IMG/VR virus record: IMGVR_UViG_2531839477_000018
Length of the DNA stretch: 37,133 bases
Source of the DNA: a virus
Taxonomy: Duplodnaviria > Heunggongvirae > Uroviricota > Caudoviricetes
Direction: 5' to 3' (one strand)
Shown: piece after piece, positions 9,175 to 35,704 of the stretch
Layout: the number at the start of each line of letters is the position of its first letter
How positions within the stretch are numbered: the stretch's first letter is position 1
Notes under the pieces: model-generated
The model's database searches: none
Seen by the model: only the letters and a program-made list of their open reading frames with translations
Told to the model about the DNA's origin: nothing
Translations under genes and position numbers: made by a program

Positions 9175-10134
9175 ATGAAAATTTGTATCGATGACGGCTC
9201 CACCAACATCAAGCTGGCATGGACTGAGAACGGCGAACGCCGCAACGCCATCAGCCCGAACAGCTTCAAGTCGGAATGGTCTGCGCCGTTCGGTGGCACG
9301 CAGCCCGCGAACTACATGCTTGATGGCGTGCGCTATGGTTTTGATCCTGTCAGCGATCGCTTTGTCCAGACGACCGACACGCAATACCAGTACAGCGATG
9401 TGAATGTCATTGCCATTCATCACGCGCTGGTCAAATCAGGCATCACGCCACAGGCGGTGGATGTGGTTGTCACCCTGCCGCTGAGCGAGTATTTCGACAC
9501 AAACGCCCAGCCGGATATGACCAACATCAACCGCAAAAAAGCGAACGTTATGCGCCCGGTGGAGTACCAGAACGGTGAGGCATTCACTATCCGTAATGTA
9601 CGGGTTATGCCTGAATCCATTCCGGCAGGCTTTAAGGCACTGGCTGACATGAGTCCGTTTGAATCCCTGCTGATTGTGGATTTGGGCGGAACCACGCTGG
9701 ATGTGGCAAAGGTTCAGGGACAACTGGCAGGTATCAGCCAGGTGTTTTGCGATCCACACGTAGGCGTTTCCCTGATGGCCGATGCCGTACTGTCGGTGAT
9801 GGCCACTAACGGTATGCGTACCAGTCACCACATCGCCAATACCATTATCGAACATCGCCATGATGAAGCCTGGCTGCGCCAGCACATCCACAATGACGCG
9901 CATTACGCCAGCCTGATGGCGGTTATTCGTGAAAAGGAAGAAACACTGAAACAACGCGTGATCCGCGCGCTGGCGGGTTTTTCGGGTTACGGGCGGGTGA
10001 TGGTTGTCGGTGGCGGGACGGAGATTGTGGCACCCGCTATCCGCGAAGCCTGCGGAGTTAATGCGACTTTCATCGCGGACGGGGTGCCACAGTTTGCTCT
10101 GGTTAATGGGCTGTACGCAATGGACAAGGAGTAA
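9175..10134 (+). CDS. parM: ParM/StbA-family actin-like segregation ATPase
   Basis: N-terminus MKICIDDGSTNIKLAW matches the ParM/StbA phosphate-1 signature (R1 ParM begins MLVFIDDGSTNIKLQW); later ..DLGGTT.. and ..VVGGG.. ASKHA motifs; 319 aa. Confidence 0.75.
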   Translation: MKICIDDGSTNIKLAWTENGERRNAISPNSFKSEWSAPFGGTQPANYMLDGVRYGFDPVSDRFVQTTDTQYQYSDVNVIAIHHALVKSGITPQAVDVVVTLPLSEYFDTNAQPDMTNINRKKANVMRPVEYQNGEAFTIRNVRVMPESIPAGFKALADMSPFESLLIVDLGGTTLDVAKVQGQLAGISQVFCDPHVGVSLMADAVLSVMATNGMRTSHHIANTIIEHRHDEAWLRQHIHNDAHYASLMAVIREKEETLKQRVIRALAGFSGYGRVMVVGGGTEIVAPAIREACGVNATFIADGVPQFALVNGLYAMDKE

Positions 10135-22736: not shown

Positions 22737-24902
22737 ATGAGTACCACAACACGAAAATTTAAAACCGTTATCACCGATACGGGTGCCAAAAAATTAGCTC
22801 AGGCAGCCGCGCCAGATGGTAAGCCTGTCCGCCTGACTCATATGGCCGTGGGCGACGGTGGCGGTACATTGCCCACACCAGACAGTAAGCAGACCCGTCT
22901 GGTGCATGAGGTGTGGCGACATACTGTTAATCGCGTCTTCCTGGACGCAACACATCAGAACCGCATTATTGCGGAGCTGGTTATTCCTCCTGAAACGGGC
23001 GGATTCTGGATCCGGGAAATTGGTGTATTTGATGAGCACGGCGATTTGATCGCGGTTGGCAATACAGCCGAAAGTTACAAGCCAACCGTTGCCGAAGGGT
23101 CAGGACGTGCACAAACATTTCGCACCATTCTGACCGTCTCCAGCACTGCCACTGTGGCGCTTACCGTGGATAACACCATGGTTATGGCCACAGTGGATTA
23201 CGTGAATGACAAACTGAAAGAACATGAACAGTCACGACGTCACCCGGACGCCTCGCTGACCGCAAAAGGCTTTGTTCAACTCAGTAGCGCCACTAACAGC
23301 GTGTCTGAAACGCAGGCTGCAACGCCGAAAGCAGTAAAGGCCGCATATGATCTTGCTAAAGGTAAATATACTGCGCAGGATGCCAGCACGACGCGAAAAG
23401 GCCTTGTCCAGCTCAGTAGCGCCACCAACAGCACGTCTGAAACACTGGCCGCGACATCGAAAGCGGTTAAGGCGGTAATGGATGAAACGAACAAGAAAGC
23501 GCCCTTAAACAGTCCTGCGCTGACCGGAACGCCAACAACGCCAACTGCGCGACAGGGAACGAATAATACCCAAATCGCAAGCACGGCTTTCGTTATGGCT
23601 GCGATTGCCGCCCTTGTAGATTCGTCACCTGACGCACTGAATACGCTGAACGAGTTAGCGGCGGCGCTGGGAAACGACCCGAATTTTGCGACCACCATGA
23701 CTAACGCGCTTGCGGGTAAGCAACCGAAAGATGCCACCCTGACGGCGCTGGCCGGGCTTGCTACTGCGGCAGACAGGTTTCCGTATTTTACGGGGAATGA
23801 TGTCGCCAGCCTGGCAACCCTGACAAAAGTCGGGCGGGATATTCTTGCGAAATCGACTGTTGCTGCCGTTATCGAATACCTCGGTTTACAGGAAACGGTA
23901 AACAAGGCTGGTAACGCCGTCCAAAAGACAGGCGATATCTTGTCCGGTGGGCTTACTTTTGAAAACGACTCAATCCTTGCCTGGATTCGGAATACTGACT
24001 GGGCAAAGATTGGTTTTAAAAATGATGCCGACAGCGATACTGATTCATACATGTGGTTTGAAACAGGCGACAACGGCAATGAATATTTCAAATGGAGAAG
24101 CCGCCAGAGCACCACAACAAAAGACCTGATGAATCTTAAATGGGATGCTTTGTATGTTCTTGTTAAAGCTCTTTTCAGCCGTGAAGTAAAAATATCGACA
24201 GTCAATGCACTGAGGATATTTAATTCATCTTTTGGTGCTATTTTTCGCCGTTCTGAAGAATGCCTTCATATCATCCCTACCCGAGAAAATGAGGGGGAAA
24301 ATGGCGATATAGGGCCACTACGCCCCTTTACGCTTAATCTCAGAACTGGTCGCATAACTATGGGGCATGGTCTGGATGTTACAGGAGATATATTTGCAAA
24401 CCGTTTTTTAATTAACAGCAGTACAGGCATGTGGATTCATATGCGTGACCAGAACGTTATTATGGGACGTAATGCGGTATCCACTGATGGTGCTCAAGCT
24501 TTGCTTCGTCAGGACCATGCCGACCGCAAATTTATGATTGGCGGTCTGGGAAATAAGCAATTTGGCATCTACATGATTAATAATTCAAGGACAACCAATG
24601 GCACCGATGGTCAGGCGTACATGGATAATAACGGGAACTGGCTTTGCGGCTCGCAAGTTATTCCCGGCAACTATGGCAATTTTGATTCCAGATATGTGAA
24701 AGATGTTCGACTTGGTTCACAGCAATATTATGGAGTGAACAACTGGCAAACATGGAATTTCCAGTGCCCGTCAGGTCATGTATTGTCTGGTATTAATGTT
24801 CAGGATACAGGGTCCAACTCTGCCGATAATATAGCGGGCGTTTATTACAGACCCGTTCAAAAGTATATAAATGGCACCTGGTATAATGTAGCGAGCGTTT
24901 AA
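22737..24902 (+). CDS. H: Tail fibre protein (P2 gpH-like); constant N-terminal part to about 23894, variable C-terminal part 23895-24902 in the expressed orientation
   Basis: 721-aa ORF with internal ~30-aa tandem repeats ([11 protein letters not shown].. / [11 protein letters not shown]..); recombination site embedded at 23869-23894. Confidence 0.85.
23869..23894. repeat. Invertase crossover site, left (gix/hix-like), inside the tail-fibre gene
   Basis: TTATCGAATACCTCGGTTTACAGGAA; inverted partner at 26941-26966; matches the Gin/Hin site pattern TTATC..AAACC-TC-GGTTTACAGGAA. Confidence 0.8.
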
Positions 24903-24903
24903 T

Positions 24904-25431
24904 ATGATGCACTTAAAGAACATAAAAGCGGGTAACGCTAAAACACTGGAACAGTATGAGTTAACAAAGAAACACGGAGTTATCTGGCTTTACTCTGAGG
25001 ACGGAAAAAACTGGTATGAGGAAGTGAAGAACTTTCAGCCAGACACAATAAAGATTGTTTACGATGAAAATAATATTATTGTCGCTATCACCAGAGATGC
25101 TTCAACGCTTAATCCTGAAGGTTTTAGCGTTGTTGAGGTTCCTGATATTACCTCCAACCGACGTGCTGACGACTCAGGTAAATGGATGTTTAAGGATGGT
25201 GCTGTGGTTAAACGGATTTATACGGCAGATGAACAGCAACAACAGGCAGAATCACAAAAGGCCGCATTACTTTCCGAAGCGGAAAGCGTTATTCAGCCAC
25301 TGGAACGCGCTGTCAGGCTGAATATGGCGACGGATGAGGAACGTGCACGACTGGAGTCATGGGAACGCTACAGCGTTCTGGTCAGCCGTGTGGATACGGC
25401 AAATCCTGAATGGCCACAAAAGCCTGAATAA
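24904..25431 (+). CDS. G: Tail fibre assembly chaperone (P2 gpG-like), expressed orientation
   Basis: 175-aa [17 protein letters not shown].. immediately after H. Confidence 0.8.
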
Positions 25432-25459
25432 AAATTAAGGCCCGCTATCGGGCCTTGTC

Positions 25460-25993
25460 TCATTCAGGTTGTTCGGGAAATGTTACTGGCAGGCTGGAGG
25501 TGTCTGTAGATTCGACTTTCTGCGCATAGAGCATCCACTCGGTTAATTTTTGTTTATTCTCGTCGGAAATGATGCCCAGCCGTAGCTGTGAGTCCCATAG
25601 CTGGGTTTTATCCCTGACAAGTTGCAACAGGCTTTGCTTTTCATTCTCTGCCTGCTGCCTCTGTTCCTCCTCGGTATAAGTTCGCTTTATCACTACGCCA
25701 TCTTTGAACATCCATTTACCCGAAATATCAGCCCAGCGATTTGCTGTAATATCAGGAACCTCAACGACGCTTGCGCCTTCTGGATTAATTGCTGAAACAT
25801 CCTTTTCAATACAAATAATAACGCCGTTGTAGTCATAGACCATTTTCAACGTATCAGTCTGGAAATTCTTTTGTTCCTCATACCAGTTTTTTCCATCCTC
25901 TGTATAAAGCCATTTGATGTTAAATTGTTTCGTTAGCTGGTATTGCTCTTTTGTTTTAGGGTTGCCAGCTGTAATATTTTTTAAGTGCATCAT
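25460..25993 (-). CDS. Alternative tail fibre assembly chaperone (G'), silent orientation
   Basis: 177-aa ORF MMHLKNITAGNPKT.. paralogous to G, on the opposite strand inside the invertible segment. Confidence 0.75.
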   Translation of the reverse strand: MMHLKNITAGNPKTKEQYQLTKQFNIKWLYTEDGKNWYEEQKNFQTDTLKMVYDYNGVIICIEKDVSAINPEGASVVEVPDITANRWADISGKWMFKDGVVIKRTYTEEEQRQQAENEKQSLLQLVRDKTQLWDSQLRLGIISDENKQKLTEWMLYAQKVESTDTSSLPVTFPEQPE

Positions 25994-25995
25994 AA

Positions 25996-26940
25996 TTAAA
26001 TACTCCCCGCGTTATACCACGTTCCATTAATGCAATACTGAATTGGCCTTGCCTGTGTTGTATCAATTAATTCATCACGGTTTCCGTTAACTGAACCCGT
26101 AACGACATAACCTGACCTGTCAGACCAGCCGGGACCATTCCATGTCTGAACAGATGACAGACCGCCAAGACGAATACCTGTAATAAACCTTGAGTTACAT
26201 TCTGCCTGCGTATATGCACCAACATCTCCCGCTGATGGCTTACGTGTTGTGGTGTAAATTTCTGACCAGTCAGCTTCGAATCCGTAACCATCACGCGCTG
26301 AACGATAAAAAATACCGCCGTTCCTGTAATTCACACGGAACTGTACGGCAGGGCAACTCCCCGTATTCATATTGAAGTGGAGGATTAATGTCGATGCGCC
26401 ACCAATATTTGCGTTATAGACCCCGCTATTCCAGTTCCAGCCAACAGCTTTATCATTTCCGACAGTGCTTCCTGTTTGCCCTAAAGCAAATGCAGGCTGC
26501 TGGTTTTTCGTGTTGTAGTCTCGTCGCCAGCCAGGAGCATAAGCATCACCATGATTAATATAAGTGAATTGAGCGTTAGTGATTCCGCCACCGCTGGACG
26601 TGCTCGGCGTGGTAACACGTATGGTCATTGCGCCGCGAGTGCCAATAACTTCCACCACAGCACCTGCAAGACAAATATTTCCGCAACCTGTATCTGTAAT
26701 GACCTTATTATTTGCATAAGCCCATGAGCCTTTGCACATCCAGTAAGGATGGTTAAATGCCCCCTGACTCTCCAGCCACGAAATAAATTGCACAGTTGTC
26801 CAGACCTGACTATCGCCACCAATATCCACCCATGCGCTATATGCGCGACAGGCCCCAATATTTTTGGTGAAGGTATCTTTTCCCGGAATATCTGCGCCGT
26901 TCTGGTTTTTCTGTAATGCGCCAGAAGCCTGATTTACCGT
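25996..26940 (-). CDS. Alternative tail fibre variable C-terminal segment (H'), promoterless, fused to the constant part only after inversion
   Basis: Minus-strand frame is open from the right crossover site and stays in frame with the H constant region across the site (..[14 protein letters not shown]..); ORF-track 25996-26829 is its Met-initiated tail. Confidence 0.65.
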   Translation of the reverse strand, partial: TVNQASGALQKNQNGADIPGKDTFTKNIGACRAYSAWVDIGGDSQVWTTVQFISWLESQGAFNHPYWMCKGSWAYANNKVITDTGCGNICLAGAVVEVIGTRGAMTIRVTTPSTSSGGGITNAQFTYINHGDAYAPGWRRDYNTKNQQPAFALGQTGSTVGNDKAVGWNWNSGVYNANIGGASTLILHFNMNTGSCPAVQFRVNYRNGGIFYRSARDGYGFEADWSEIYTTTRKPSAGDVGAYTQAECNSRFITGIRLGGLSSVQTWNGPGWSDRSGYVVTGSVNGNRDELIDTTQARPIQYCINGTWYNAGSI

Positions 26941-26966
26941 TTCCTGTAAACCGAGGTTTTAGATAA
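26941..26966. repeat. Invertase crossover site, right (gix/hix-like)
   Basis: TTCCTGTAAACCGAGGTTTTAGATAA, reverse complement of the left site apart from flank mismatches; ~55 bp upstream of the invertase gene. Confidence 0.8.
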
Positions 26967-27020
26967 TGGCCGTTTCCGGCCTGCATGGCATGATTTGCGC
27001 TTTTGGACGGGAGATTCAGC

Positions 27021-27608
27021 GTGCTGATTGGCTATGTAAGGGTATCAACAAATGACCAGAATACAGACCTGCAACGAAACGCTCTTGTTTGTGCAGGATG
27101 TGAACAAATATTTGAAGATAAATTAAGCGGGACAAAGACAGACCGACCGGGATTAAAACGCGCTTTAAAGCGCCTTCAAAAAGGTGACACGCTGGTTGTC
27201 TGGAAACTGGATCGCCTCGGGCGAAGCATGAAACATCTGATTTCTCTCGTCGGGGAACTACGGGAGCGAGGGATTAATTTTCGCAGTCTGACCGACAGCA
27301 TAGATACATCTTCTCCAATGGGGCGTTTTTTCTTCCACATGATGGGTGCCCTGGCTGAAATGGAACGTGAATTAATTGTTGAACGTACACTGGCCGGACT
27401 GGCGGCAGCGCGCGCACGGGGGCGCACAAGCGGACGTCGACCGAAGCTGACAAAAGAACAGCATGAGCAAATAGCAAGGCTGATCAAAAACGGGCACGAC
27501 AGAAAACAACTGGCAATAATTTACGGCATTGGTATATCGACGATTTATCGTTACCACCCCGCAGGAGAATCAAGCGGAACAATTGAGAAGAGTCAGGAAA
27601 CAAAATAA
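27021..27608 (+). CDS. Serine site-specific DNA invertase (Pin/Gin/Hin/Cin family)
   Basis: Probable GTG start giving ..LIGYVRVSTNDQNTDLQRNAL.. (catalytic Ser in VRVST); closely resembles E. coli e14 Pin as recalled; C-terminal HTH; ORF-track start 27003 is an upstream in-frame ATG. Confidence 0.9.
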   Translation: MLIGYVRVSTNDQNTDLQRNALVCAGCEQIFEDKLSGTKTDRPGLKRALKRLQKGDTLVVWKLDRLGRSMKHLISLVGELRERGINFRSLTDSIDTSSPMGRFFFHMMGALAEMERELIVERTLAGLAAARARGRTSGRRPKLTKEQHEQIARLIKNGHDRKQLAIIYGIGISTIYRYHPAGESSGTIEKSQETK

Positions 27609-27636
27609 CCGCTAATCTGGCCATTAGCGGTTTTTG
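27608..27636. terminator. Hairpin terminator between invertase and U (possibly bidirectional)
   Basis: ACCGCTAAT-ctggcc-ATTAGCGGT perfect 9-bp stem followed by TTTTT. Confidence 0.5.
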
Positions 27637-27643
27637 TGTTAAA

Positions 27644-28138
27644 TCAGAACAGCCCTTTAACTGAACTGGCCGCACTGTTAAGAGATGATGTCACCTTATC
27701 TTTGAAGCCGGACAGCATATCGCTGAATGATGAGGATTGCAGGCGCTCCCGCAAATCCTCATCACAGCGTTCAAGGGTCAGTGAAAATTCTATCTTTTTC
27801 GCCTTACCGTAGCGATCAAACTCGGAACGGGTCGTATTCGTTTCAGTCAGCACATACATGCCGTAAATCTGCCCGACACCATCAATCAGAGGCCAGGGGC
27901 GTCCTGTATATGCCTGCGTGGTCAGCAACGAAAGCGACACTTCGCCACCTGTAATTTCAGGATAAAGCACGCCGGAAAGCACAATGCGATCATCACCTGC
28001 ACCGATATACTGCCAGCTTGCTGAACGGTTAACGCGTTCATTTTTCACATGCCGCCAGCTTTTGTTTTGCTGTAACTGCTGATGCGGCAGTGTGCGCAGC
28101 TCAAAAACAAACATGCCGTAGATCATCATCATGGCCAT
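27644..28138 (-). CDS. U: Tail protein (P2 gpU-like)
   Basis: 164-aa ORF; remembered similarity to P2 U (..SWRHV.ND.RV.RSA..QY.G.G.D.I.LSG.LYPE.TGG.VSLSLL..); last gene of the T-U order on the minus strand. Confidence 0.8.
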   Translation of the reverse strand: MAMMMIYGMFVFELRTLPHQQLQQNKSWRHVKNERVNRSASWQYIGAGDDRIVLSGVLYPEITGGEVSLSLLTTQAYTGRPWPLIDGVGQIYGMYVLTETNTTRSEFDRYGKAKKIEFSLTLERCDEDLRERLQSSSFSDMLSGFKDKVTSSLNSAASSVKGLF

Positions 28139-28144
28139 GACTCC

Positions 28145-30988
28145 TCAATCTTTATCGTAAAAACTGCCACGCCCGGCACGGGCGCGCCGTTCCATTTCTG
28201 CCCTGACCATTTCACCGACCAGTTTCGCCAGTTCGCGGGGATTCTGCGTAACAACGTTATGCAGATGAACATGAATTTCACCACCAAATCCGGAGGCAAC
28301 AGGCTCCCGGTTACGGGAAGTTACAGGAACTGATGCCACTGGCGATCGTATGGCCTCCGCCACCGGGCGGGAGCTGGCCGCAACAACAGGGACCAGCGCC
28401 GGAGGCAGCGGAGCCGGGACTACGGGTGTGATATTAATTGCGGGGGCAGGCTTACTGACCTGCGCAATCTTCCGCTCCTGCCACTCCCCACGAACAGCAA
28501 GTGCGCGGGGCAGGTTCTTAAAGACAATATCGCCGGGGCCAATGCGTTTTTTCGTCTCATCAACCAGCTTACCTGTGTTATCAGCAATTTTGCTGAGTCT
28601 GCGCAGCGTCCCGGTATTGCTGTCTGTGAGCGGTTTGTTGTCTTTGGGGTTATCACCTCCGGTGCCATTGCCATTTTCCACAGGCTTCGGCGGATTGATT
28701 TTCGCCAGGTCCCCCTGAAGCAAGGCAACCTTGTCCTGAAGAATGGCCGCACGCTGTGCGTCTTCGATTTTCTTGCGCGCCCTTTCCGCTTCATCCGGAA
28801 GGACGCCAAGTTTTTCAAGTATCCACGCCAGCGTATCCAGCAGCATTTTTGCAGGTGTCAGAACAAGTTGTAACGCACCGCCAAGAACGTTACCGAATAT
28901 CTCGCCAGCACTGGTACATTTATCCAGCGTTTCCTTGCTGGACTCCATCGGTGACAGCAGCGATTTAAAACAGTTAAACACCTGGCTGATCCCGCTTCCG
29001 ATTGCGTCAAAAACAGGGCCAAACCGTTCAAAGGTTTCAAGCAACGGGTTCAGCCTTTCCATAATCCCGCTGAACACCCCGGCAAAAAATGCCCTGATGG
29101 GATCCCAGTATTTCCAGATAAGAACGGCAGCTCCGGCAAGCGCAGCCACGATAAGACCAACGGGACTGAACAGCGCCCCGATAGCGCCTCCCAGCAAAGA
29201 AACGGAACCCGTCACCATTCCCCACAGCGCAGGCAACACCCTGACGACATTCATTGACCGGGTAAGAATGTCAAAACCAAGACGCAGGGTGGCCAGCTTC
29301 CCGTAAAGCACCCCAATAACCAGCGACAACGAGCCAATCGTTGCAGTCATTGCCAGCAACGCACCGCCTGCTATCAGTAGCTGGCGCGTCAGTACCGGAT
29401 GGGCCTGCGCCAGCGAGGTGATTTTTTCAAGCACCCGCGTGAGCCACTGCGTGACAGAACGCAGCGGACCGTCAACCAGATCACTGATGCGAATACGAAG
29501 ACCTTCCCATGCGCTGTCGAGATTTTTCAGGTCCCCATCAAGATTATCGGCCATTACTTTTGCAACGCGATCGGCCTCTCCCCTTGCCCCCTGCAATTCT
29601 CTGGTCAGTTTTTGCAGCTCTCCCGAACCAGCCGCCGCAACAAGCGTCTGCAAACCAACGAACGCCTCTTCTCCGGCGATGTCCTTGAAGAAGGAGACCT
29701 GGTCCACCTGTCCGTATTTTTGTGTCGCCTTATAGAGATCAAGCAGCACATCCTCCATCGGGCGCATTTTGCCTCTGGCGTCAGCAACTGACACCCCCAG
29801 CTCTTTCAGTGCATCAGCCGCAGCTTTTGGCGGTGATGCAAGGCGGGACAGACTTGCGCGCATGGCCGTGCCAGCATCGCTTCCGCGAAGACCATTATTG
29901 GCAAGCATCCCGGCCATGGCCGCCGCTTCTTCAAGACTGATACCAAGTTTTGCGGCAACCGGACCGGTATACTTCATGGTTTCGCCCAGCGAGCGTAAAT
30001 CAGTATTGGTCCGGGTAAATGCTGCTGTCAGCGTATCGCCCACCCGGCCCATTTGATCGGCTGTCAGGTTGAACTGTGTGAGGATATTGGAGCCTATATC
30101 AGCCGTCTCGCCGAGTTCGACGCCACCTGCCAGCGCCATATTAAGAACACCGGGCAATGCGGCCTGAATGGCCTGCGGAGTAAAACCAGCCATTGCCAGA
30201 AAGCTCTGCCCACTGGCGGCATCACTCGCAGTAAACTGTGTTTCAGAGCCAAGTTTTAACGCCTGCTCACGCAGCGCCTTAAACTGCGGGCTGTTTTTGT
30301 CGATTCGCGTCAGTGCCTGAACGCGGGACATCTCTTTGCCGAACCCGATCGCAGGCTGCAAAAAACGCCCGGCAGCATAGCCGCCCGCCACTGCCGCACC
30401 AGTTGCCAGCGCACCACCTGTTTTCAGTTTTCCAGCGGTTTCCTGCGCACGCGAATACCGCTCACGCGCCCGCGTTACACGCGCAAGCGCCTGCCGTTCG
30501 CGTTCAAGCTGGTTGTTGTATTGTTCGGTGCGTCTGATAGCCTGCTGGATGGTGTTATCGCTGCCTGTCAGGGAAATGCCGTGGCGTTTCAGTTCTCCGC
30601 CAAGCTCCCGCATTTTCTGAATTTCCCGTGTGCGCGATTCATTCAGGCGTTCAAGCCGGGTGCTTAACTGCTGCATCAGCTTTTGTTGTTTTTCGCTGAG
30701 CACTGTACCCGTGCGTTGTAACTGATTAAGGGCGTTAAGCTGGCGTCGTGCTTTCACGATACCCGCATCCGCTTTACTGACAGCGTCGCGGGCGCGCTCA
30801 AATGAACGCGCCTGACGCTCGAGATTTTTGATCGCCCCCTGCGTTCGCTGGATGGAGTCACCAAACTGCCCCATCAGGCGGCGGGCGTTTTCGGCAGGCC
30901 GGGTCAGCCTGTCAACGGCGCTGAAAGCGACCCGGATATCAAGAGTCTTCATTGTCTGCACTCCCGCTGCGAAGTGCCGCCCGCTCAC
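28145..30988 (-). CDS. T: Tail tape measure protein (P2 gpT-like)
   Basis: 947-aa ORF, Ala/Gly-rich with long helical N-terminal part and TM-like central segments; downstream of E/E'. Confidence 0.85.
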   Translation of the reverse strand: MSGRHFAAGVQTMKTLDIRVAFSAVDRLTRPAENARRLMGQFGDSIQRTQGAIKNLERQARSFERARDAVSKADAGIVKARRQLNALNQLQRTGTVLSEKQQKLMQQLSTRLERLNESRTREIQKMRELGGELKRHGISLTGSDNTIQQAIRRTEQYNNQLERERQALARVTRARERYSRAQETAGKLKTGGALATGAAVAGGYAAGRFLQPAIGFGKEMSRVQALTRIDKNSPQFKALREQALKLGSETQFTASDAASGQSFLAMAGFTPQAIQAALPGVLNMALAGGVELGETADIGSNILTQFNLTADQMGRVGDTLTAAFTRTNTDLRSLGETMKYTGPVAAKLGISLEEAAAMAGMLANNGLRGSDAGTAMRASLSRLASPPKAAADALKELGVSVADARGKMRPMEDVLLDLYKATQKYGQVDQVSFFKDIAGEEAFVGLQTLVAAAGSGELQKLTRELQGARGEADRVAKVMADNLDGDLKNLDSAWEGLRIRISDLVDGPLRSVTQWLTRVLEKITSLAQAHPVLTRQLLIAGGALLAMTATIGSLSLVIGVLYGKLATLRLGFDILTRSMNVVRVLPALWGMVTGSVSLLGGAIGALFSPVGLIVAALAGAAVLIWKYWDPIRAFFAGVFSGIMERLNPLLETFERFGPVFDAIGSGISQVFNCFKSLLSPMESSKETLDKCTSAGEIFGNVLGGALQLVLTPAKMLLDTLAWILEKLGVLPDEAERARKKIEDAQRAAILQDKVALLQGDLAKINPPKPVENGNGTGGDNPKDNKPLTDSNTGTLRRLSKIADNTGKLVDETKKRIGPGDIVFKNLPRALAVRGEWQERKIAQVSKPAPAINITPVVPAPLPPALVPVVAASSRPVAEAIRSPVASVPVTSRNREPVASGFGGEIHVHLHNVVTQNPRELAKLVGEMVRAEMERRARAGRGSFYDKD

Positions 30989-31468
30989 GCCAGCTAACCA
31001 CTTCGCCGGGCGTCATCATGAAGATTTCGGCGGGCGACCAGTTAAAAATAACGGCAATATCTGCCACAAAGTCTTCTATGTGCTCAAAGCACACAACCGT
31101 GATCAGGCTTCCGTCGCCTGTTCGTTCTTCCCGCCAGAGTCCGCACCGCTCAAAAAATTTACGGCAACCACACATAACTGAATAAAGTCACGGGATGCCA
31201 TTTTTTTGATCGTCACTTCATCCAGTCGCGGTGATGTCACGCGTGACAGCAGCGTAAACATGGATTCCGCTTTCAGATTCAGCACATCAGACAGCGACAA
31301 ATCTCGCAGAGATCCAGCCTGCTCAATAGCTCCGGTGATCTCCACATACGTGATTTTTTCGCCGCCTCGCTCAATTGGTTGGGTAAGTTTTACGCCACGC
31401 TCACTGGTTTCTTTCACAGTGTCAGCAACGACCGTGTTTTCGGTATCGATGTTTTTCGTCTCTTTCAT
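30939..31468 (-). CDS. E: Tail assembly chaperones E and E+E' (programmed -1 frameshift product)
   Basis: E frame 31103-31468; E' frame 30939-31175 overlaps it; slippery heptamer TTTTTTG on the minus strand at 31151-31157 lies in the overlap, as in P2 E/E'. Confidence 0.7.
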
Positions 31469-31522
31469 CAGGAAACTCCTTTCAGTCAGAGGCGACGCAC
31501 TGCGCCGCCTGCATATTACTTA

Positions 31523-32035
31523 TCAGCCAAGCCCGAGCGCGGAACGGATGCGATCGGGCACAATGTCCTTGCCGTCCTTCCGGTAAATGAAGTTCAGCAG
31601 GTCAATCTCCCACAACGGGCGATCGTTAACACTCAGCTTGTAATAGGTGTTTTTAATGGCGTAAGTGTGTGATGTGGCTTCGCCCTGTTTGGCTTCCCCC
31701 ATATCAATTTCCGTCACACGTCCGCGCATTTCGACTTCATACAGGTCGCTTTCTGCATCGGTGTAGTATTCACCCGCAAAACGCAGCAGCGTGCCGTCAA
31801 TCGTGCCGCCATACTTAAGGAACAGCTCACGAACTGCGCCCCCCATGACAAAGCTCGCATCAAGCGCGGAGTCGTCCAGACCGAGATCAATACTTACCGC
31901 ACCCATCATGCCGCCCCCCCGGTAGCTGTCGGTTTTGCGCGTCAGTTTGGGCAGAGTGACGGACGTCACCTTACCCACTTCGTTTTCACCATCCACAAAC
32001 AGCGTAAAAAAGCGAAGATGTTTTGGCACAGCCAT
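31523..32035 (-). CDS. FII: Tail tube protein (P2 gpFII-like)
   Basis: 170-aa ORF directly after sheath gene; size and order match. Confidence 0.85.
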   Translation of the reverse strand: MAVPKHLRFFTLFVDGENEVGKVTSVTLPKLTRKTDSYRGGGMMGAVSIDLGLDDSALDASFVMGGAVRELFLKYGGTIDGTLLRFAGEYYTDAESDLYEVEMRGRVTEIDMGEAKQGEATSHTYAIKNTYYKLSVNDRPLWEIDLLNFIYRKDGKDIVPDRIRSALGLG

Positions 32036-33219
32036 CAGGCACCTCCCAGCACCGCAAATGCGGGTTCAAAGTATTCATCAGTAAACGTCTGGTAAAGCTC
32101 CATGTCTTCCAGTGGCGGAACGGGCGTATATTTGTAGCGAATACGCACACGCCCCTGACGTAAATCCGTGGTGCTGTTATCCACCACGTCATACCAGCAC
32201 TCCGCGCCAATCAGTTTCCCGGCAGTAACCAGTGAGTCCAGTTTTGCCCTGATGGCACTGATAACATCCTTCACGTTCGCAGGCGTCAGTGGACTGTCGA
32301 TGGTTTCAAACTGCGCTTCCGCAATTGAATCAGCCAGCACCTGTGCGGTTCGGGTATACACCTCAAAGATGTAGGCGTTCGTTTCCGGTGTGCGGTTGCC
32401 CCAGAAGCGGAACCCGTTGCGACGAATAATGGTCGTGATTTCTTTGTTGTTGAGGCTGTTGGCATCGCTGTCTTCGGCCTGCAACGACCAGAACACATGC
32501 CTCGACATCCCCAGCACATTTTTAACCGGAACGTTGGACAGTGATTTGTGCCAGCCCTGCTCATGGTCAATGTACGCACGAAGGCCGCACGCATAGGCAG
32601 GCGCGGGGAACGTTTCGTTTTTGCCACTTTTCGGGTTGTAGGCAATGAAGTCAGGCCATAAGAGCATCACCTCACGTTCGTTGAATTTCTGGCGGTAGGT
32701 AATCGCCTCAGCCATCGTGTTACAGCCGTGACATGAGGCATACACAAACGCGCGCAATTTACCCGCAATCACGCACAGGGATTTTGTCACCGCCTCCGTA
32801 TCCAGCTCCGGCGCGGCCAGAATACGCGGACGGTATCCGATGCTTTCATCCTGCTCTGCAACAAGCAGCGCATACATCCCCGTATAGCTGCCGTCATCCT
32901 CAGAACCACCGATAACCAGTTGATCCTGCGTCTTTCCGTCTTCTTCTTTGTGTTCAGCCACGCGAACGACGATCACCTTTGTGCTCACCTGGTCTGCGAT
33001 GGCCTTAAGCGCACGATAAAGCGTCCCCGTTGTTCCGCATTTTCCCAGCACGTCATTGACGCGGGTCAGCAGTGTGGGCTTGTTCAGCGGGAACAGCTTC
33101 GCGTCCGCATCATCCGCCGTTGCCACGATACCGATAACGCTGGAATCAACATCGTTAATCGCTGTTACCAGGTCGGTATTTTCCGTAACACGGGCACCAT
33201 GAAAACGAGTTTCACTCAT
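32035..33219 (-). CDS. FI: Tail sheath protein (P2 gpFI-like)
   Basis: 394-aa ORF with remembered similarity to P2 FI (..FPLNKP.L..V.......GTL...L.AIADQ..); overlaps FII start. Confidence 0.85.
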   Translation of the reverse strand: MSETRFHGARVTENTDLVTAINDVDSSVIGIVATADDADAKLFPLNKPTLLTRVNDVLGKCGTTGTLYRALKAIADQVSTKVIVVRVAEHKEEDGKTQDQLVIGGSEDDGSYTGMYALLVAEQDESIGYRPRILAAPELDTEAVTKSLCVIAGKLRAFVYASCHGCNTMAEAITYRQKFNEREVMLLWPDFIAYNPKSGKNETFPAPAYACGLRAYIDHEQGWHKSLSNVPVKNVLGMSRHVFWSLQAEDSDANSLNNKEITTIIRRNGFRFWGNRTPETNAYIFEVYTRTAQVLADSIAEAQFETIDSPLTPANVKDVISAIRAKLDSLVTAGKLIGAECWYDVVDNSTTDLRQGRVRIRYKYTPVPPLEDMELYQTFTDEYFEPAFAVLGGA

Positions 33220-33376: not shown

Positions 33377-34486
33377 ATGACCGACACCACCATGCAATTG
33401 CTCAGTCAGGGCACAGACCCCGTGAAAATGCCGGATTTTGATATTCTCGCGGAGGGTAAAACGCTGTCCGGCGTGGCAGAGCGCCTGATGAGCCTGTCGC
33501 TGACCGACAACCGGGGATTTGAGGCGGACCAGCTCACCATCACGCTGGATGATGCCGATGGCCAGTTGCAGCTACCGCCACGGGGCGCGCGTCTGACGGT
33601 TCTCATTGGCTGGAAAGGGGAACCGCTGACAGAAAAAGGCACTTACATTGTTGATGAAATCGCTCACGAAGGACCGCCGGACAGGCTGACTGTTTCAGCC
33701 AGAAGCGCAGATTTTCGGGATGAATTTAACGTTAAACGTGAGGTGTCCTGGCATGATGTGACCGTTGAGCGTGTGGTATCCGCCATCGCTCATCGGTACG
33801 GTCTGAAACCGCAAATCAGCGAAATGCTGATGGATATCGAAATCGACCACGCCGACCAGACCGAAGAAAGCGACATGTCCTTTCTTACGCGCATGGCGGA
33901 AATGCTGGGCGCAATCACCACGGTAAAAAGCGGTAATCTGTTATTCATTATGCCAGGCGGTGGCGTGAACGCACAGGGCCAGCCGTTGCCATCGTTCGCC
34001 ATCACGCGCAGCAGTGGCGATCGCCATCAGTTCCGCATTGCTGACCGCGAAGCGTATACGGGGGTACGCGCTTACTGGCTTGATCTTAATTACGGGAAAA
34101 AGAAAAAAGTCAGCGTGAAACGCCGCAAACCGCCAAAACCCAAAAAGGAGAAAAGCAGCAGCCGTGAAGGTGATTATATGGAAGGTGCGGAAGGCAATGT
34201 GTTTGTGTTACGCAAGACTTATCAGAACGAGCAGGCAGCAAGACGCGCAGCGGCGGCAAAGTGGCAACAACTACAACGCGGAGCCGCATCATTCTCCATC
34301 ACGCTGGCACGTGGACGAGCAGAACTCTACCCCGAAATGCATGGCACGGTAACAGGATTTAAAAGCGAGATTGATAATCAGGACTGGATTATTGCAAAAG
34401 CCGAGCACACCATTGATAACAGCGGCTTTACCACGCAGCTTGAGCTTGAGGCAAAAATCCCGGAATGGATAGCGGAAACAGAGTGA
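33377..34486 (+). CDS. D: Tail protein D (P2 gpD-like)
   Basis: Start at MTDTTMQLLSQG with GGGAGG RBS 7 nt upstream; the ORF-track start at 33245 adds a low-complexity leader that is probably not translated. Confidence 0.8.
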   Translation: MTDTTMQLLSQGTDPVKMPDFDILAEGKTLSGVAERLMSLSLTDNRGFEADQLTITLDDADGQLQLPPRGARLTVLIGWKGEPLTEKGTYIVDEIAHEGPPDRLTVSARSADFRDEFNVKREVSWHDVTVERVVSAIAHRYGLKPQISEMLMDIEIDHADQTEESDMSFLTRMAEMLGAITTVKSGNLLFIMPGGGVNAQGQPLPSFAITRSSGDRHQFRIADREAYTGVRAYWLDLNYGKKKKVSVKRRKPPKPKKEKSSSREGDYMEGAEGNVFVLRKTYQNEQAARRAAAAKWQQLQRGAASFSITLARGRAELYPEMHGTVTGFKSEIDNQDWIIAKAEHTIDNSGFTTQLELEAKIPEWIAETE

Positions 34487-34528: not shown

Positions 34529-34789
34529 ATGTTCCGTTGTCCGCTTTGTGGCGCATCTGCCCGTATCCGCACCAGTCGTCCGGAAAATGATTCAAACACC
34601 GTGCGGCAAAAGTATTACCAGTGTAACAACCTGGAATGCGGCGTATGCTTCTCAACACTGGAAGCTTTCCATAAATTCACATCGAAACACGCCTCCGGCG
34701 TTCACTCATCAGAAGGTATCCCGTGGCATGAGCTGCCAGCTTCACACAGGGGAAACAATCAGATGAGTTTGCCTTTACCTCAGAATTAA
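34529..34789 (+). CDS. ogr: Late gene transcriptional activator, Ogr/Delta zinc-finger family
   Basis: MFRCPLCGASARIRTSR...YYQCNNLECGVCFST matches the P2 Ogr pattern MFHCPLC....RTSR...YHQC.N..C...F (four Cys zinc finger); last phage gene. Confidence 0.85.
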   Translation: MFRCPLCGASARIRTSRPENDSNTVRQKYYQCNNLECGVCFSTLEAFHKFTSKHASGVHSSEGIPWHELPASHRGNNQMSLPLPQN

Positions 34790-34978: not shown

Positions 34979-35119
34979 ATGTCGCAAAAATCGCTTACGG
35001 CCATCACGTTCTGCGTGACGGTAATCCTCATCATCTGGATGCTGCACGGTTCGCTGTGTGAAATACGGATGAGCTTCTGGGGAGCGGAGTTTGCGGCGTT
35101 CTTACAGTGTAAGCAGTAA
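34979..35119 (+). CDS. Hok/Gef-family small membrane toxin (46 aa), not in the ORF track
   Basis: MSQKSLTAITFCVTVILIIWMLHGSLCEIRMSFWGAEFAAFLQCKQ: N-terminal TM helix and C-terminal LCEIR...AAFL signature of Hok/Gef; AAGGAG RBS 8 nt upstream; structured leader and hairpins around it. Confidence 0.65.
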   Translation: MSQKSLTAITFCVTVILIIWMLHGSLCEIRMSFWGAEFAAFLQCKQ

Positions 35120-35308: not shown

Positions 35309-35704
35309 TTACTCAGCATTCTCCTGCTTCCATTGCCGGATCATTTCATCGGTAACATCACTTTCATAACATACCACGTCATACCCTCCAGTACGGCTAT
35401 ATGCACTGCGTCCACCACATCTACTACCATTCCTTGCATGATTATACGGACACGCACAATTGCCTGGATAAGATTCAATGGATTCTTTAATTATTTCTTT
35501 CTTGATCTGAGCATCTGACTTTCCTGTTGCTGCATACCCACTAAAAGATACCAAACAAAGGCAGATTGCCATTAATAAACCACATCGCATACCGATACAC
35601 TCTATTACTAACCAATCATAGCCCACATCATAAAATCGAGATGAGGAGTACAACACCTTTAACAAGAAGGTGCCATCACGATAATATGCCGTGCAATTCA
35701 TCAA
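35309..35704 (-). CDS. Hypothetical cysteine-rich secreted protein
   Basis: ORF with internal signal-peptide-like segment (MRCGLLMAICLCLVSFSGYAATG) followed by a Cys-rich ~70-aa region; weak RBS at either candidate start (35704 or about 35590); AT-rich surroundings. Confidence 0.35.
   Translation of the reverse strand: MMNCTAYYRDGTFLLKVLYSSSRFYDVGYDWLVIECIGMRCGLLMAICLCLVSFSGYAATGKSDAQIKKEIIKESIESYPGNCACPYNHARNGSRCGGRSAYSRTGGYDVVCYESDVTDEMIRQWKQENAE

Follow-up and report, generated by a model that had tools for sequence, protein, structure and literature searches.

The locus at positions 22,737-27,608 is almost certainly a site-specific inversion switch of the Gin type, with two states, that acts on the tail-fibre operon of a P88-like (P2-like) Escherichia coli prophage. 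It lies within the window, the term used here for the whole stretch of viral DNA that was analysed (37,133 nucleotides; IMG/VR record IMGVR_UViG_2531839477_000018). Apart from the enhancer, which is predicted, all structural elements of a Gin/Cin/Pin-type fibre switch were found intact in the window, and the switch is real, intact and evidently active. Its mechanism is already known, the Mu-type textbook case, and no new mechanism is added. A previous sequence-only reading of the same DNA had assigned the locus to a known type (Mu G, P1 C and e14 P), and this assignment is upheld by the complete G-segment layout.

The window represents a P88-like Xuanwuvirus (P2-like) prophage of E. coli that adjoins tRNA-Leu and pgsA. 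P88 and phage 520873 cover 83-88% of its first 25 kb at ~96% identity, and the order of its fibre, invertase and tail genes matches that of P88. The Xuanwuvirus relatives compared here (P88, phage 520873, P884B11 and Citrobacter phage Shae_phiSM) share with the window a ~96% identical backbone, the gene order and the place of the invertase.

The split fibre gene and its crossover sites

As assembled, the tail-fibre gene (22,737-24,902, plus strand) encodes 721 amino acids and is made up of Sc (22,737-23,881) and Sv (23,882-24,902). This open reading frame has hits to PHROG tail-fibre families and to the Pfam domains Phage_tail_fib and Phage_fiber_2. The C-terminal 347 residues of the fibre match Mu S (PDB 5yvq, E 9e-146), with a distal tip that differs; the DNA encoding the middle and tip of Sv is 55-80% identical to that of Mu S. 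The fibre gene is followed in the expressed orientation by U, a tail-fibre assembly chaperone of 175 amino acids (24,904-25,431, plus strand; PHROG 136 and Pfam Caudo_TAP). U is 92% identical to Mu U and matches PDB 5yvq_B at E 3e-104.

The minus strand holds a second chaperone and a second fibre end, both silent in the present orientation. The alternative chaperone U' (25,460-25,993; 177 amino acids; PHROG and Pfam matches) is 97.7% identical to Mu U' and 56.6% identical to U. Between U and U', which converge, lies a GC-rich hairpin (25,437-25,456), followed by a T-run on the minus strand only. Sv', the alternative fibre C-terminus (25,996-26,953; 318 codons), is an open frame that extends up to the right crossover site and has neither a start codon nor a promoter of its own. 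It matches PDB 8ju3 (Mu S/S') at E 9e-220 and shares 314/318 residues with the variable portion of Mu S'. All four differences fall within the first 54 residues, and the distal 264 are identical to Mu S'. The segment between the sites measures 3.07 kb and has Sv-U and Sv'-U' on opposite strands; the proposed 3-kb segment with two fibre C-termini and two opposed chaperone paralogues is therefore accounted for by Sv, U, U' and Sv'.

Both 26-bp crossover sites were found at the coordinates first assigned to them. The left, gixL-type site (23,869-23,894) lies inside the fibre reading frame, where its central dinucleotide TC (23,881-23,882) forms part of a Leu codon. The right, gixR-type site (26,941-26,966) has the central dinucleotide GA (26,953-26,954). 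Relative to Mu gix, the left site carries two mismatches (read on the minus strand) and the right site one (plus strand). Matches to gix appeared in 0/100 dinucleotide-preserving shuffles, and none is expected by chance. Taken from outside to inside, the asymmetric 2-bp core reads TC at both sites, and the two are in inverted orientation. The exact inverted core is 25 bp long (23,878-23,902 versus 26,933-26,957) and the classical 34-bp inverted repeat is matched at 32/34 positions, which makes the earlier description of a "~35-bp inverted repeat" a fair one. A looser repeat of 62 nt shows 79% complementarity.

When the segment was inverted in silico at the central dinucleotide, the 721-amino-acid fibre became an in-frame fusion of 700 amino acids, directly followed by U'. 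This agrees with the suggestion that the minus-strand alternative stays in frame with the constant region. The gene is split accordingly: its 5' part is constant and lies outside the segment, which supplies either of two in-frame 3' parts, each with its own chaperone.

Loci with more than two fibre variants, such as multi-site shufflons of the Min/p15B type or the three-repeat locus of EPEC E2348/69, are known in P2-like E. coli prophages (PMC4272514). The probability that the window holds a locus of this kind is negligible, however, as it contains two gix-like sites, two fibre C-termini and two chaperones, and nothing more. No third gix-like site was found in the window, where the next-best 26-mers have 9/26 mismatches, and the segment contains no further copy of the AAACC-NN-GGTTT core. 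A two-state switch is the reading followed below.

The adjacent invertase and its predicted enhancer

Outside the right site lies the gene for a serine DNA invertase of 195 amino acids (27,021-27,608, plus strand; GTG start), with Pfam Resolvase (E 5e-51) and HTH_7 (E 2e-13) domains. The protein had been labelled "Pin-like", a label that should be replaced by Gin-type: it is closer to Gin (155/193 identical residues overall) than to Pin (139/184) or Cin (131/186). Its structure matches are to Gin (4m6f and 3uj3, E 1e-99 to 1e-100). The reading frame is full length, and Ser9 and other catalytic-domain residues are as in Gin. Residues 1-103 are as in crystallised Gin at 102/103 positions, while the C-terminal DNA-binding third agrees at just 53/90. 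The gap between the right site and the GTG at 27,021 is 54 bp, equal to that in Mu and close to the ~55 bp estimated before. At the other end of the gene, a bidirectional terminator-like hairpin (27,607-27,632) lies between the invertase and the convergent gpU tail gene.

The full-length frame and the Gin-like catalytic domain with Ser9 argue against the possibility that the switch is a relic. According to this explanation, the invertase allele or its expression would be defective in this lysogen, and other orientations would reflect past events or inter-phage recombination. It draws on two private substitutions in the invertase, V107M (helix E) and G135S (linker arm), which occur neither in Gin, Pin or Cin nor in the P88-type relatives compared. 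It also draws on a consensus scan of the 54-bp spacer and right site, which gave no sigma-70-like promoter for the invertase gene, and on the single orientation present in the window. Taken together with the genomic comparisons described in the next section, a relic is considered very improbable, and an intact Gin-type switch is preferred.

A recombinational (Fis) enhancer is predicted within the 5' end of the invertase gene (27,039-27,110), from the position of the P1 cin enhancer. The latter is annotated at nt 19-90 of its gene, a stretch that falls inside the first 110 nt of the window's invertase gene, which are 100% identical to Mu gin. The degenerate Fis pattern GNNYRNNWNNYRNNC is non-diagnostic here, with two matches each in the window and Mu and one each in P1 and e14.

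Gin, Cin, Pin and Hin are mutually complementing, and several such loci are common in a single E. coli genome. For instance, junction queries matched up to 7 places in a genome, with a median of 1, and e14 pinE provides an example of such a locus. Inversion might then depend chiefly on a Din-family invertase encoded elsewhere in the host and acting in trans, for example a cryptic-prophage Pin or the Cin or Gin of a co-resident phage. This is extremely improbable as the main route, given that an intact cognate gene and its predicted enhancer are present in cis, arranged as in Mu, and that there is no sign that the adjacent invertase is dispensable. Action in trans would also alter which enzyme acts, not the nature of the element.

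For a Gin-type switch driven by its own invertase, the likely course of inversion can be drawn from Gin and Hin, which form a synaptic complex on supercoiled DNA in a Fis-enhancer-dependent manner. By analogy, invertase dimers would bind the two crossover sites, and host Fis at the enhancer in the invertase gene would build the synaptic complex on supercoiled DNA. Cleavage of the 2-bp core by Ser9 would be followed by a 180-degree turn of one dimer pair and by religation of the TC/GA overhangs, which match.

Both orientations among public genomes

The sequence-only reading was to be given up if only one orientation were ever observed in deep sequencing, or if the invertase gene were inactive. 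Public assemblies with the identical invertase allele show both. The exact invertase protein of the window is present on 16 public contigs; among the loci with this allele, L010 and L018 are flipped, while L011-L015 and L019 are oriented as in the window. DNA is 99.8% identical between opposite-orientation loci that carry exactly the same 195-amino-acid invertase, and the fibre of L010 agrees with the predicted flipped fusion at 699/700 residues. One assembly (GCA_000357585.2, contig APYA01000044.1) matches the window at 100% identity across 12.6 kb, and a contig of GCA_000357025.2 begins precisely at position 26,933.

A further example comes from E. coli 2020N21-110 and its derivative -15, between which the segment is precisely reverse-complemented and itself 100% identical. 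In this pair the flanks show 100% identity along 4335 nt and 3331 nt, and the outer half-sites remain with them. The breakpoints fall inside the sites. A mis-polished mixed culture was considered as the source of the 8 mismatches in the inverted alignment of the pair and was rejected, with all 8 lying in the immobile outer half-sites. The prophage that flipped in 2020N21-110 has an invertase identical to that of the window at 192/195 residues. The Ser near residue 185 is Ile in the 2020N21-110 protein, a position at which the window's invertase differs from that one only. The right site and 54-bp invertase spacer are identical in the two prophages, and the left site differs by 1 nt. The occurrence of one and the same invertase protein beside both orientations, together with the near-identity of sites and spacer in a prophage that did flip, argues further against a relic.

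Phage 520873 was deposited in the orientation opposite to that of the window and P88, and inner half-site polymorphisms move with the segment among relatives. In a junction survey of 5,426 complete E. coli genomes, the Sc-Sv junction was found in 355 and the Sc-Sv' junction in 126. Phase variation of invertible fibre loci has also been demonstrated experimentally in P2-like E. coli prophages, with sequencing and PCR showing coexisting orientations in clonal cultures of EPEC E2348/69 (PMC4272514). From the identical or near-identical elements, we infer that the window's own lysogen probably switches as well. The orientation in an assembly may be arbitrary if the culture was mixed, though a mixture would itself imply switching.

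Relation to known fibre switches and predicted host range

The closest known system is the Mu G segment, which shares the layout of a constant fibre part outside, gix, Sv-U, U'-Sv', gix, a 54-bp spacer and an outward-reading invertase. The left site marks the exact onset of homology to Mu, and from there as far as nt ~390 of the gene for the invertase the DNA is ~90-100% identical. The cassette carried is essentially Mu G-gin. The carrier differs: Mu is a transposable Muvirus, whereas the window is a P2-like prophage (Peduoviridae, Xuanwuvirus). The constant part of its fibre belongs to the P2 gpH type, carrying Phage_tail_fib and fibre repeats, unlike that of Mu, and the invertase is followed by tail genes instead of Mu's com or mom.

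Among the Xuanwuvirus relatives, P88 has identical gix sites, an invertase identical at 191/195 residues and one extra copy of a 132-nt repeat in its fibre. Shae_phiSM and 520873 have a shorter and different Sv' region, and their sites differ slightly from those of the window. The P88 paper (PMC5285337), checked for a prior description in P88 or Xuanwuvirus, mentions neither inversion nor an invertase.

The P1 C and e14 P segments resemble the window in their Din-family serine invertases, 26-bp sites, alternative fibre ends and chaperones. Across Sv, U, U' and Sv', the DNA of P1 C shares 79-88% identity with the window, but cin, unlike the window's gene, points toward the segment, with its 3' end abutting cixL. 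The fibre genes of e14 have no DNA relation to those of the window, and one is a pseudogene. The loci of EPEC E2348/69, likened to the window by description, are also in P2-like prophages, but one is a three-repeat shufflon (Goldberg et al. 2014, PMC4272514) where the window has two sites.

Ogr-activated late transcription would enter via the constant part, so that only the proximal pair of fibre end and chaperone would be expressed. A count of P2-type late-promoter dyads (TGT-N12-ACA) was below chance expectation and uninformative. In the window, Sv-U follows Sc, consistent with the expressed orientation given in the first reading, and the expressed pair is S and U, as in the Mu reference record. 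In that record, S and U are annotated as expressed, and S' and U' as G(-) products.

The two orientations probably confer different host ranges, judging from Mu, whose G(+) and G(-) host ranges are summarised in PMC4406740. The targets of Mu G(-) are E. coli C, Citrobacter, Enterobacter, Serratia, Erwinia and Shigella sonnei (PMC4406740). After a flip, the distal 264 residues of the window's fibre would equal those of Mu S'. The Sv tip expressed at present differs from that of Mu S, and Mu therefore gives no guide to its receptor. A lysogen population would release two kinds of particle and thereby hedge its host range; the prediction is that induced lysates of the window's lysogen contain two particle types, one with the Mu G(-) receptor-binding tip.

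A broader, and unlikely, proposal is that the gix-bounded cassette is a portable module swapped among unrelated co-resident phages (Mu-like, P1-like and P2-like), with gix as one recombination joint. Three observations are compatible with it: homology to Mu begins at the left site and stops inside the invertase gene; the Sv' tip is 100% identical to Mu and the Sv tip is not; and the inner half-sites carry polymorphisms that travel with the segment. If true, invertase-mediated intermolecular exchange would act besides homologous recombination, and a P2-like prophage could gain the Mu G(-) tip wholesale and reach non-E. coli hosts.

For annotation, the locus gains in precision, as pipelines call the invertase just "recombinase family protein" and label the promoterless Sv' fragment as a truncated "tail fiber protein". 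The switch also accounts for assemblies of such strains that differ in orientation or break at the locus.

The Mu-type cassette and its crossover sites

Judged by sequence, this invertible fibre locus shares its mechanism, sites and proteins with the Mu G/Gin system, at 90-100% identity, and the finding is not new. GenBank includes the carrier phage type and annotates its invertase, and published work describes phase variation at loci of this kind in P2-like prophages of E. coli (PMC4272514). Inversion is not discussed in the paper describing P88 (PMC5285337), and the explicit coordinates and orientation given here are therefore a useful annotation rather than a discovery.

Alignments identify the carrier as a P2-like prophage of the genus Xuanwuvirus, with ~96% identity to phages 520873 and P88 over 83-88% of the window's first 25 kb. 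It is integrated in E. coli, adjoining tRNA-Leu(taa), tRNA-Cys, tRNA-Gly and pgsA, and many E. coli chromosomes match its right flank at 99.9% identity. Between the left crossover site and roughly nt 390 of the invertase gene, the DNA matches the Mu G-gin cassette, with homology in BLAST beginning exactly at 23869. Identity to Mu DNA is 96-100% across the alternative fibre C-terminus Sv' and most of the chaperone gene U', 86-97% across the first two thirds of the invertase gene, and 55-80% across the middle and tip of the other C-terminus, Sv, and the start of its paralogous chaperone gene U. The segment faces the same way as in the Mu reference record, which gives S and U as the expressed genes and labels S' and U' as G(-) products.

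The two 26-bp sites proposed by the sequence-only reading are present. The left site, TTCCTGTAAACCGAGGTATTCGATAA (23869-23894, minus strand), differs from Mu gix at 2 nt, and the right site, TTCCTGTAAACCGAGGTTTTAGATAA (26941-26966, plus strand), at 1 nt; shuffled sequence yielded no gix-like match with up to 3 mismatches allowed. The exact inverted-repeat core spans 25 bp (23878-23902 and 26933-26957), while the classical 34-bp inverted repeat is matched at 32/34 positions. A looser repeat of 62 nt (79%) reaches inward from the sites, because Sv and Sv' both start with the homologous residues LQETVNxA. Read from outside to inside, both sites carry the asymmetric core dinucleotide TC (23881-82 and 26953-54), and an identical core dinucleotide is required for religation after a 180-degree rotation. 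No third gix-like site was found in the whole window; a multi-site shufflon is excluded by the count of two sites and is scarcely credible.

Fibre, chaperone and invertase genes

The fibre ORF (22737-24902, plus strand; 721 aa) runs without a frame break through the left site, which encodes VIEYLGLQE, and is directly followed by U (24904-25431, plus strand; 175 aa). U' (25460-25993; 177 aa) and Sv' (25996-26952), an open frame of 318 codons that lacks a start codon and reaches the right site, lie on the minus strand, which agrees with the predicted pairs of alternative C-termini and opposed chaperone paralogues. Exchange in silico at the central dinucleotide produced a 700-aa fibre with U' immediately after it, so the proposed in-frame alternative holds. 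Sv' and the variable part of Mu S' agree at 314/318 residues, and all four differences fall within the first 54, so that the distal 264 residues are identical. U' and U share 97.7% and 92% protein identity with their Mu counterparts. The expressed Sv aligns with Mu S along its full length but differs at the distal tip.

The fibre matches PHROG tail-fibre families and Pfam Phage_tail_fib and Phage_fiber_2, and both chaperones match Caudo_TAP; close solved structures are Mu S with U (5yvq) and Mu S/S' (8ju3). The constant part of the fibre contains a 132-nt tandem repeat (23264-23341 and 23396-23473; 78 nt aligned, 82%) corresponding to Phage_fiber_2 repeats. P88 has one extra 132-nt copy and a fibre of 764 aa rather than 721 aa. 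Between the convergent U and U' lies a GC-rich hairpin (25437-25456) with a T-run on the minus strand only, in a region 93% identical to Mu. It resembles a terminator for S'-U' transcripts, not for S-U transcripts, and with the segment as it now lies, late transcription might continue past it, antisense, toward the invertase gene.

The invertase gene (27021-27608, plus strand) has a GTG start and begins 54 bp past the right site, as in Mu and close to the ~55 bp first estimated. A hairpin resembling a bidirectional terminator (27607-27632) stands between it and the convergent gpU gene. Its product matches Resolvase and HTH_7, with Gin (4m6f, 3uj3) as close structure matches. Overall identity is 155/193 to Gin of Mu, 139/184 to Pin of e14 and 131/186 to Cin of P1; the label "Pin-like" is therefore better replaced by "Gin-like". 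Residues 1-103 are identical to Gin at 102/103 positions, Ser9 included, whereas residues 104-195 match at only 53/90. In Gin, Ser9 was demonstrated to form the phosphoserine link, according to work in the reference list of PMC3575834. The gene's first 110 nt are identical to Mu gin and cover the stretch where the enhancer is annotated in P1 cin (nt 19-90), and from this we infer that the putative Fis enhancer is intact. V107M and G135S are specific to the window's allele, Gin, Pin, Cin and the compared P88-type relatives having V and G; a Ser near position 185 is shared with P88 and differs from strain 2020N21-110.

Both orientations in public sequences

Four independent lines of public-sequence evidence bear on switching, drawn from assemblies rather than read counts and including no read set of the window's own strain. 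An invertase identical over all 195 aa is encoded on 16 public contigs. Among the ten of these listed, six (L011-L015 and L019) have the window's arrangement, L011 being 100% identical to it along 12,588 nt, and two (L010 and L018) are flipped, with DNA 99.8% identical. The L010 fibre is 700 aa long and matches the predicted fusion at 699/700 residues. A frozen switch, in which the segment no longer inverts, is thus very unlikely, since this one allele accompanies the segment in either orientation. Inversion catalysed in trans by a different Din invertase is also improbable, and would leave the element's identity unchanged. Contigs with this allele from two independent assemblies (L016, GCA_000357025.2; L017, GCA_002507985.1) begin exactly at window position 26933, the inner edge of the exact-repeat core, which is the break expected if reads supported both junctions.

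E. coli 2020N21-110 and its derivatives -15 and -24 share one prophage, with an invertase identical to the window's at 192/195 residues and an identical right site and spacer. In 2020N21-110 and -15 the flanks are 100% identical (4335 and 3331 nt), and one segment is the reverse complement of the other. All 8 apparent mismatches fall in the outer half-sites, which do not leave the flanks. This makes the flip exact and places the crossover inward of the penultimate base preceding the core. In 2020N21-110-24 (NZ_CM125672.1, 7363-9533), the annotation of the flipped segment includes three frameshifted genes, and its alignment to the parent contains 33 gaps; these may reflect consensus error from a mixed-orientation culture rather than real mutation.

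Phage 520873 was deposited in the orientation opposite to that of the window and P88, and inner half-site polymorphisms move with the segment, as exchange at the core predicts. More broadly, 800-nt queries at no less than 80% coverage detected the junction of the constant fibre part (Sc) with Sv in 355 of 5,426 complete E. coli genomes, and the Sc-Sv' junction in 126. Experiments on the invertible fibre loci of P2-like prophages in EPEC E2348/69 have shown the two orientations side by side in clonal cultures (PMC4272514).

Predicted switching, host range and neighbouring genes

Sites, frames, enzyme and arrangement are all in place in this prophage, and both states occur among near-identical elements. 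By analogy with the Gin and Hin literature, invertase dimers would bind both sites, the Fis-bound enhancer would assemble a synaptic complex on supercoiled DNA, and Ser9 would cut at the 2-bp core, followed by subunit rotation and religation. Transcription would come in from the upstream late operon, so that only the proximal Sv-chaperone pair would be made; positions 34529-34789 encode an Ogr-type activator. E. coli K-12 is the host of Mu G(+) particles, and the G(-) form targets E. coli C, Citrobacter, Enterobacter, Serratia, Erwinia and Shigella sonnei (PMC4406740). By tip identity, the flipped prophage should share Mu G(-) specificity, while that of the expressed Sv cannot be read off Mu.

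Other genes were also observed. A ParM/StbA-type actin-like plasmid-segregation gene (9175-10134, plus strand; StbA_N E 1e-81, ParM_N E 6e-68) closely follows the replication gene gpA in the early region, and a partition ATPase is unexpected in an integrating phage. Between ogr and the tRNA-Leu attachment end sit a Hok/Gef-family toxin ORF (34979-35119, plus strand; Pfam E 4e-7), named likewise in RefSeq relatives, and a 131-aa ORF without a family (35309-35704, minus strand); both look like cargo genes.

The canonical P2 tail order is FI-FII-E-T-U-D. Here, the block of gpU, tape measure, gpE/E', tube and sheath is inverted relative to P2, lying on the minus strand between the invertase and gpD (27644-33219, minus strand, and about 33377-34486, plus strand). 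No gix-like site was found flanking it. The same order occurs in P88, Shae_phiSM, 520873 and the E. coli prophages examined, and so is a genus trait.
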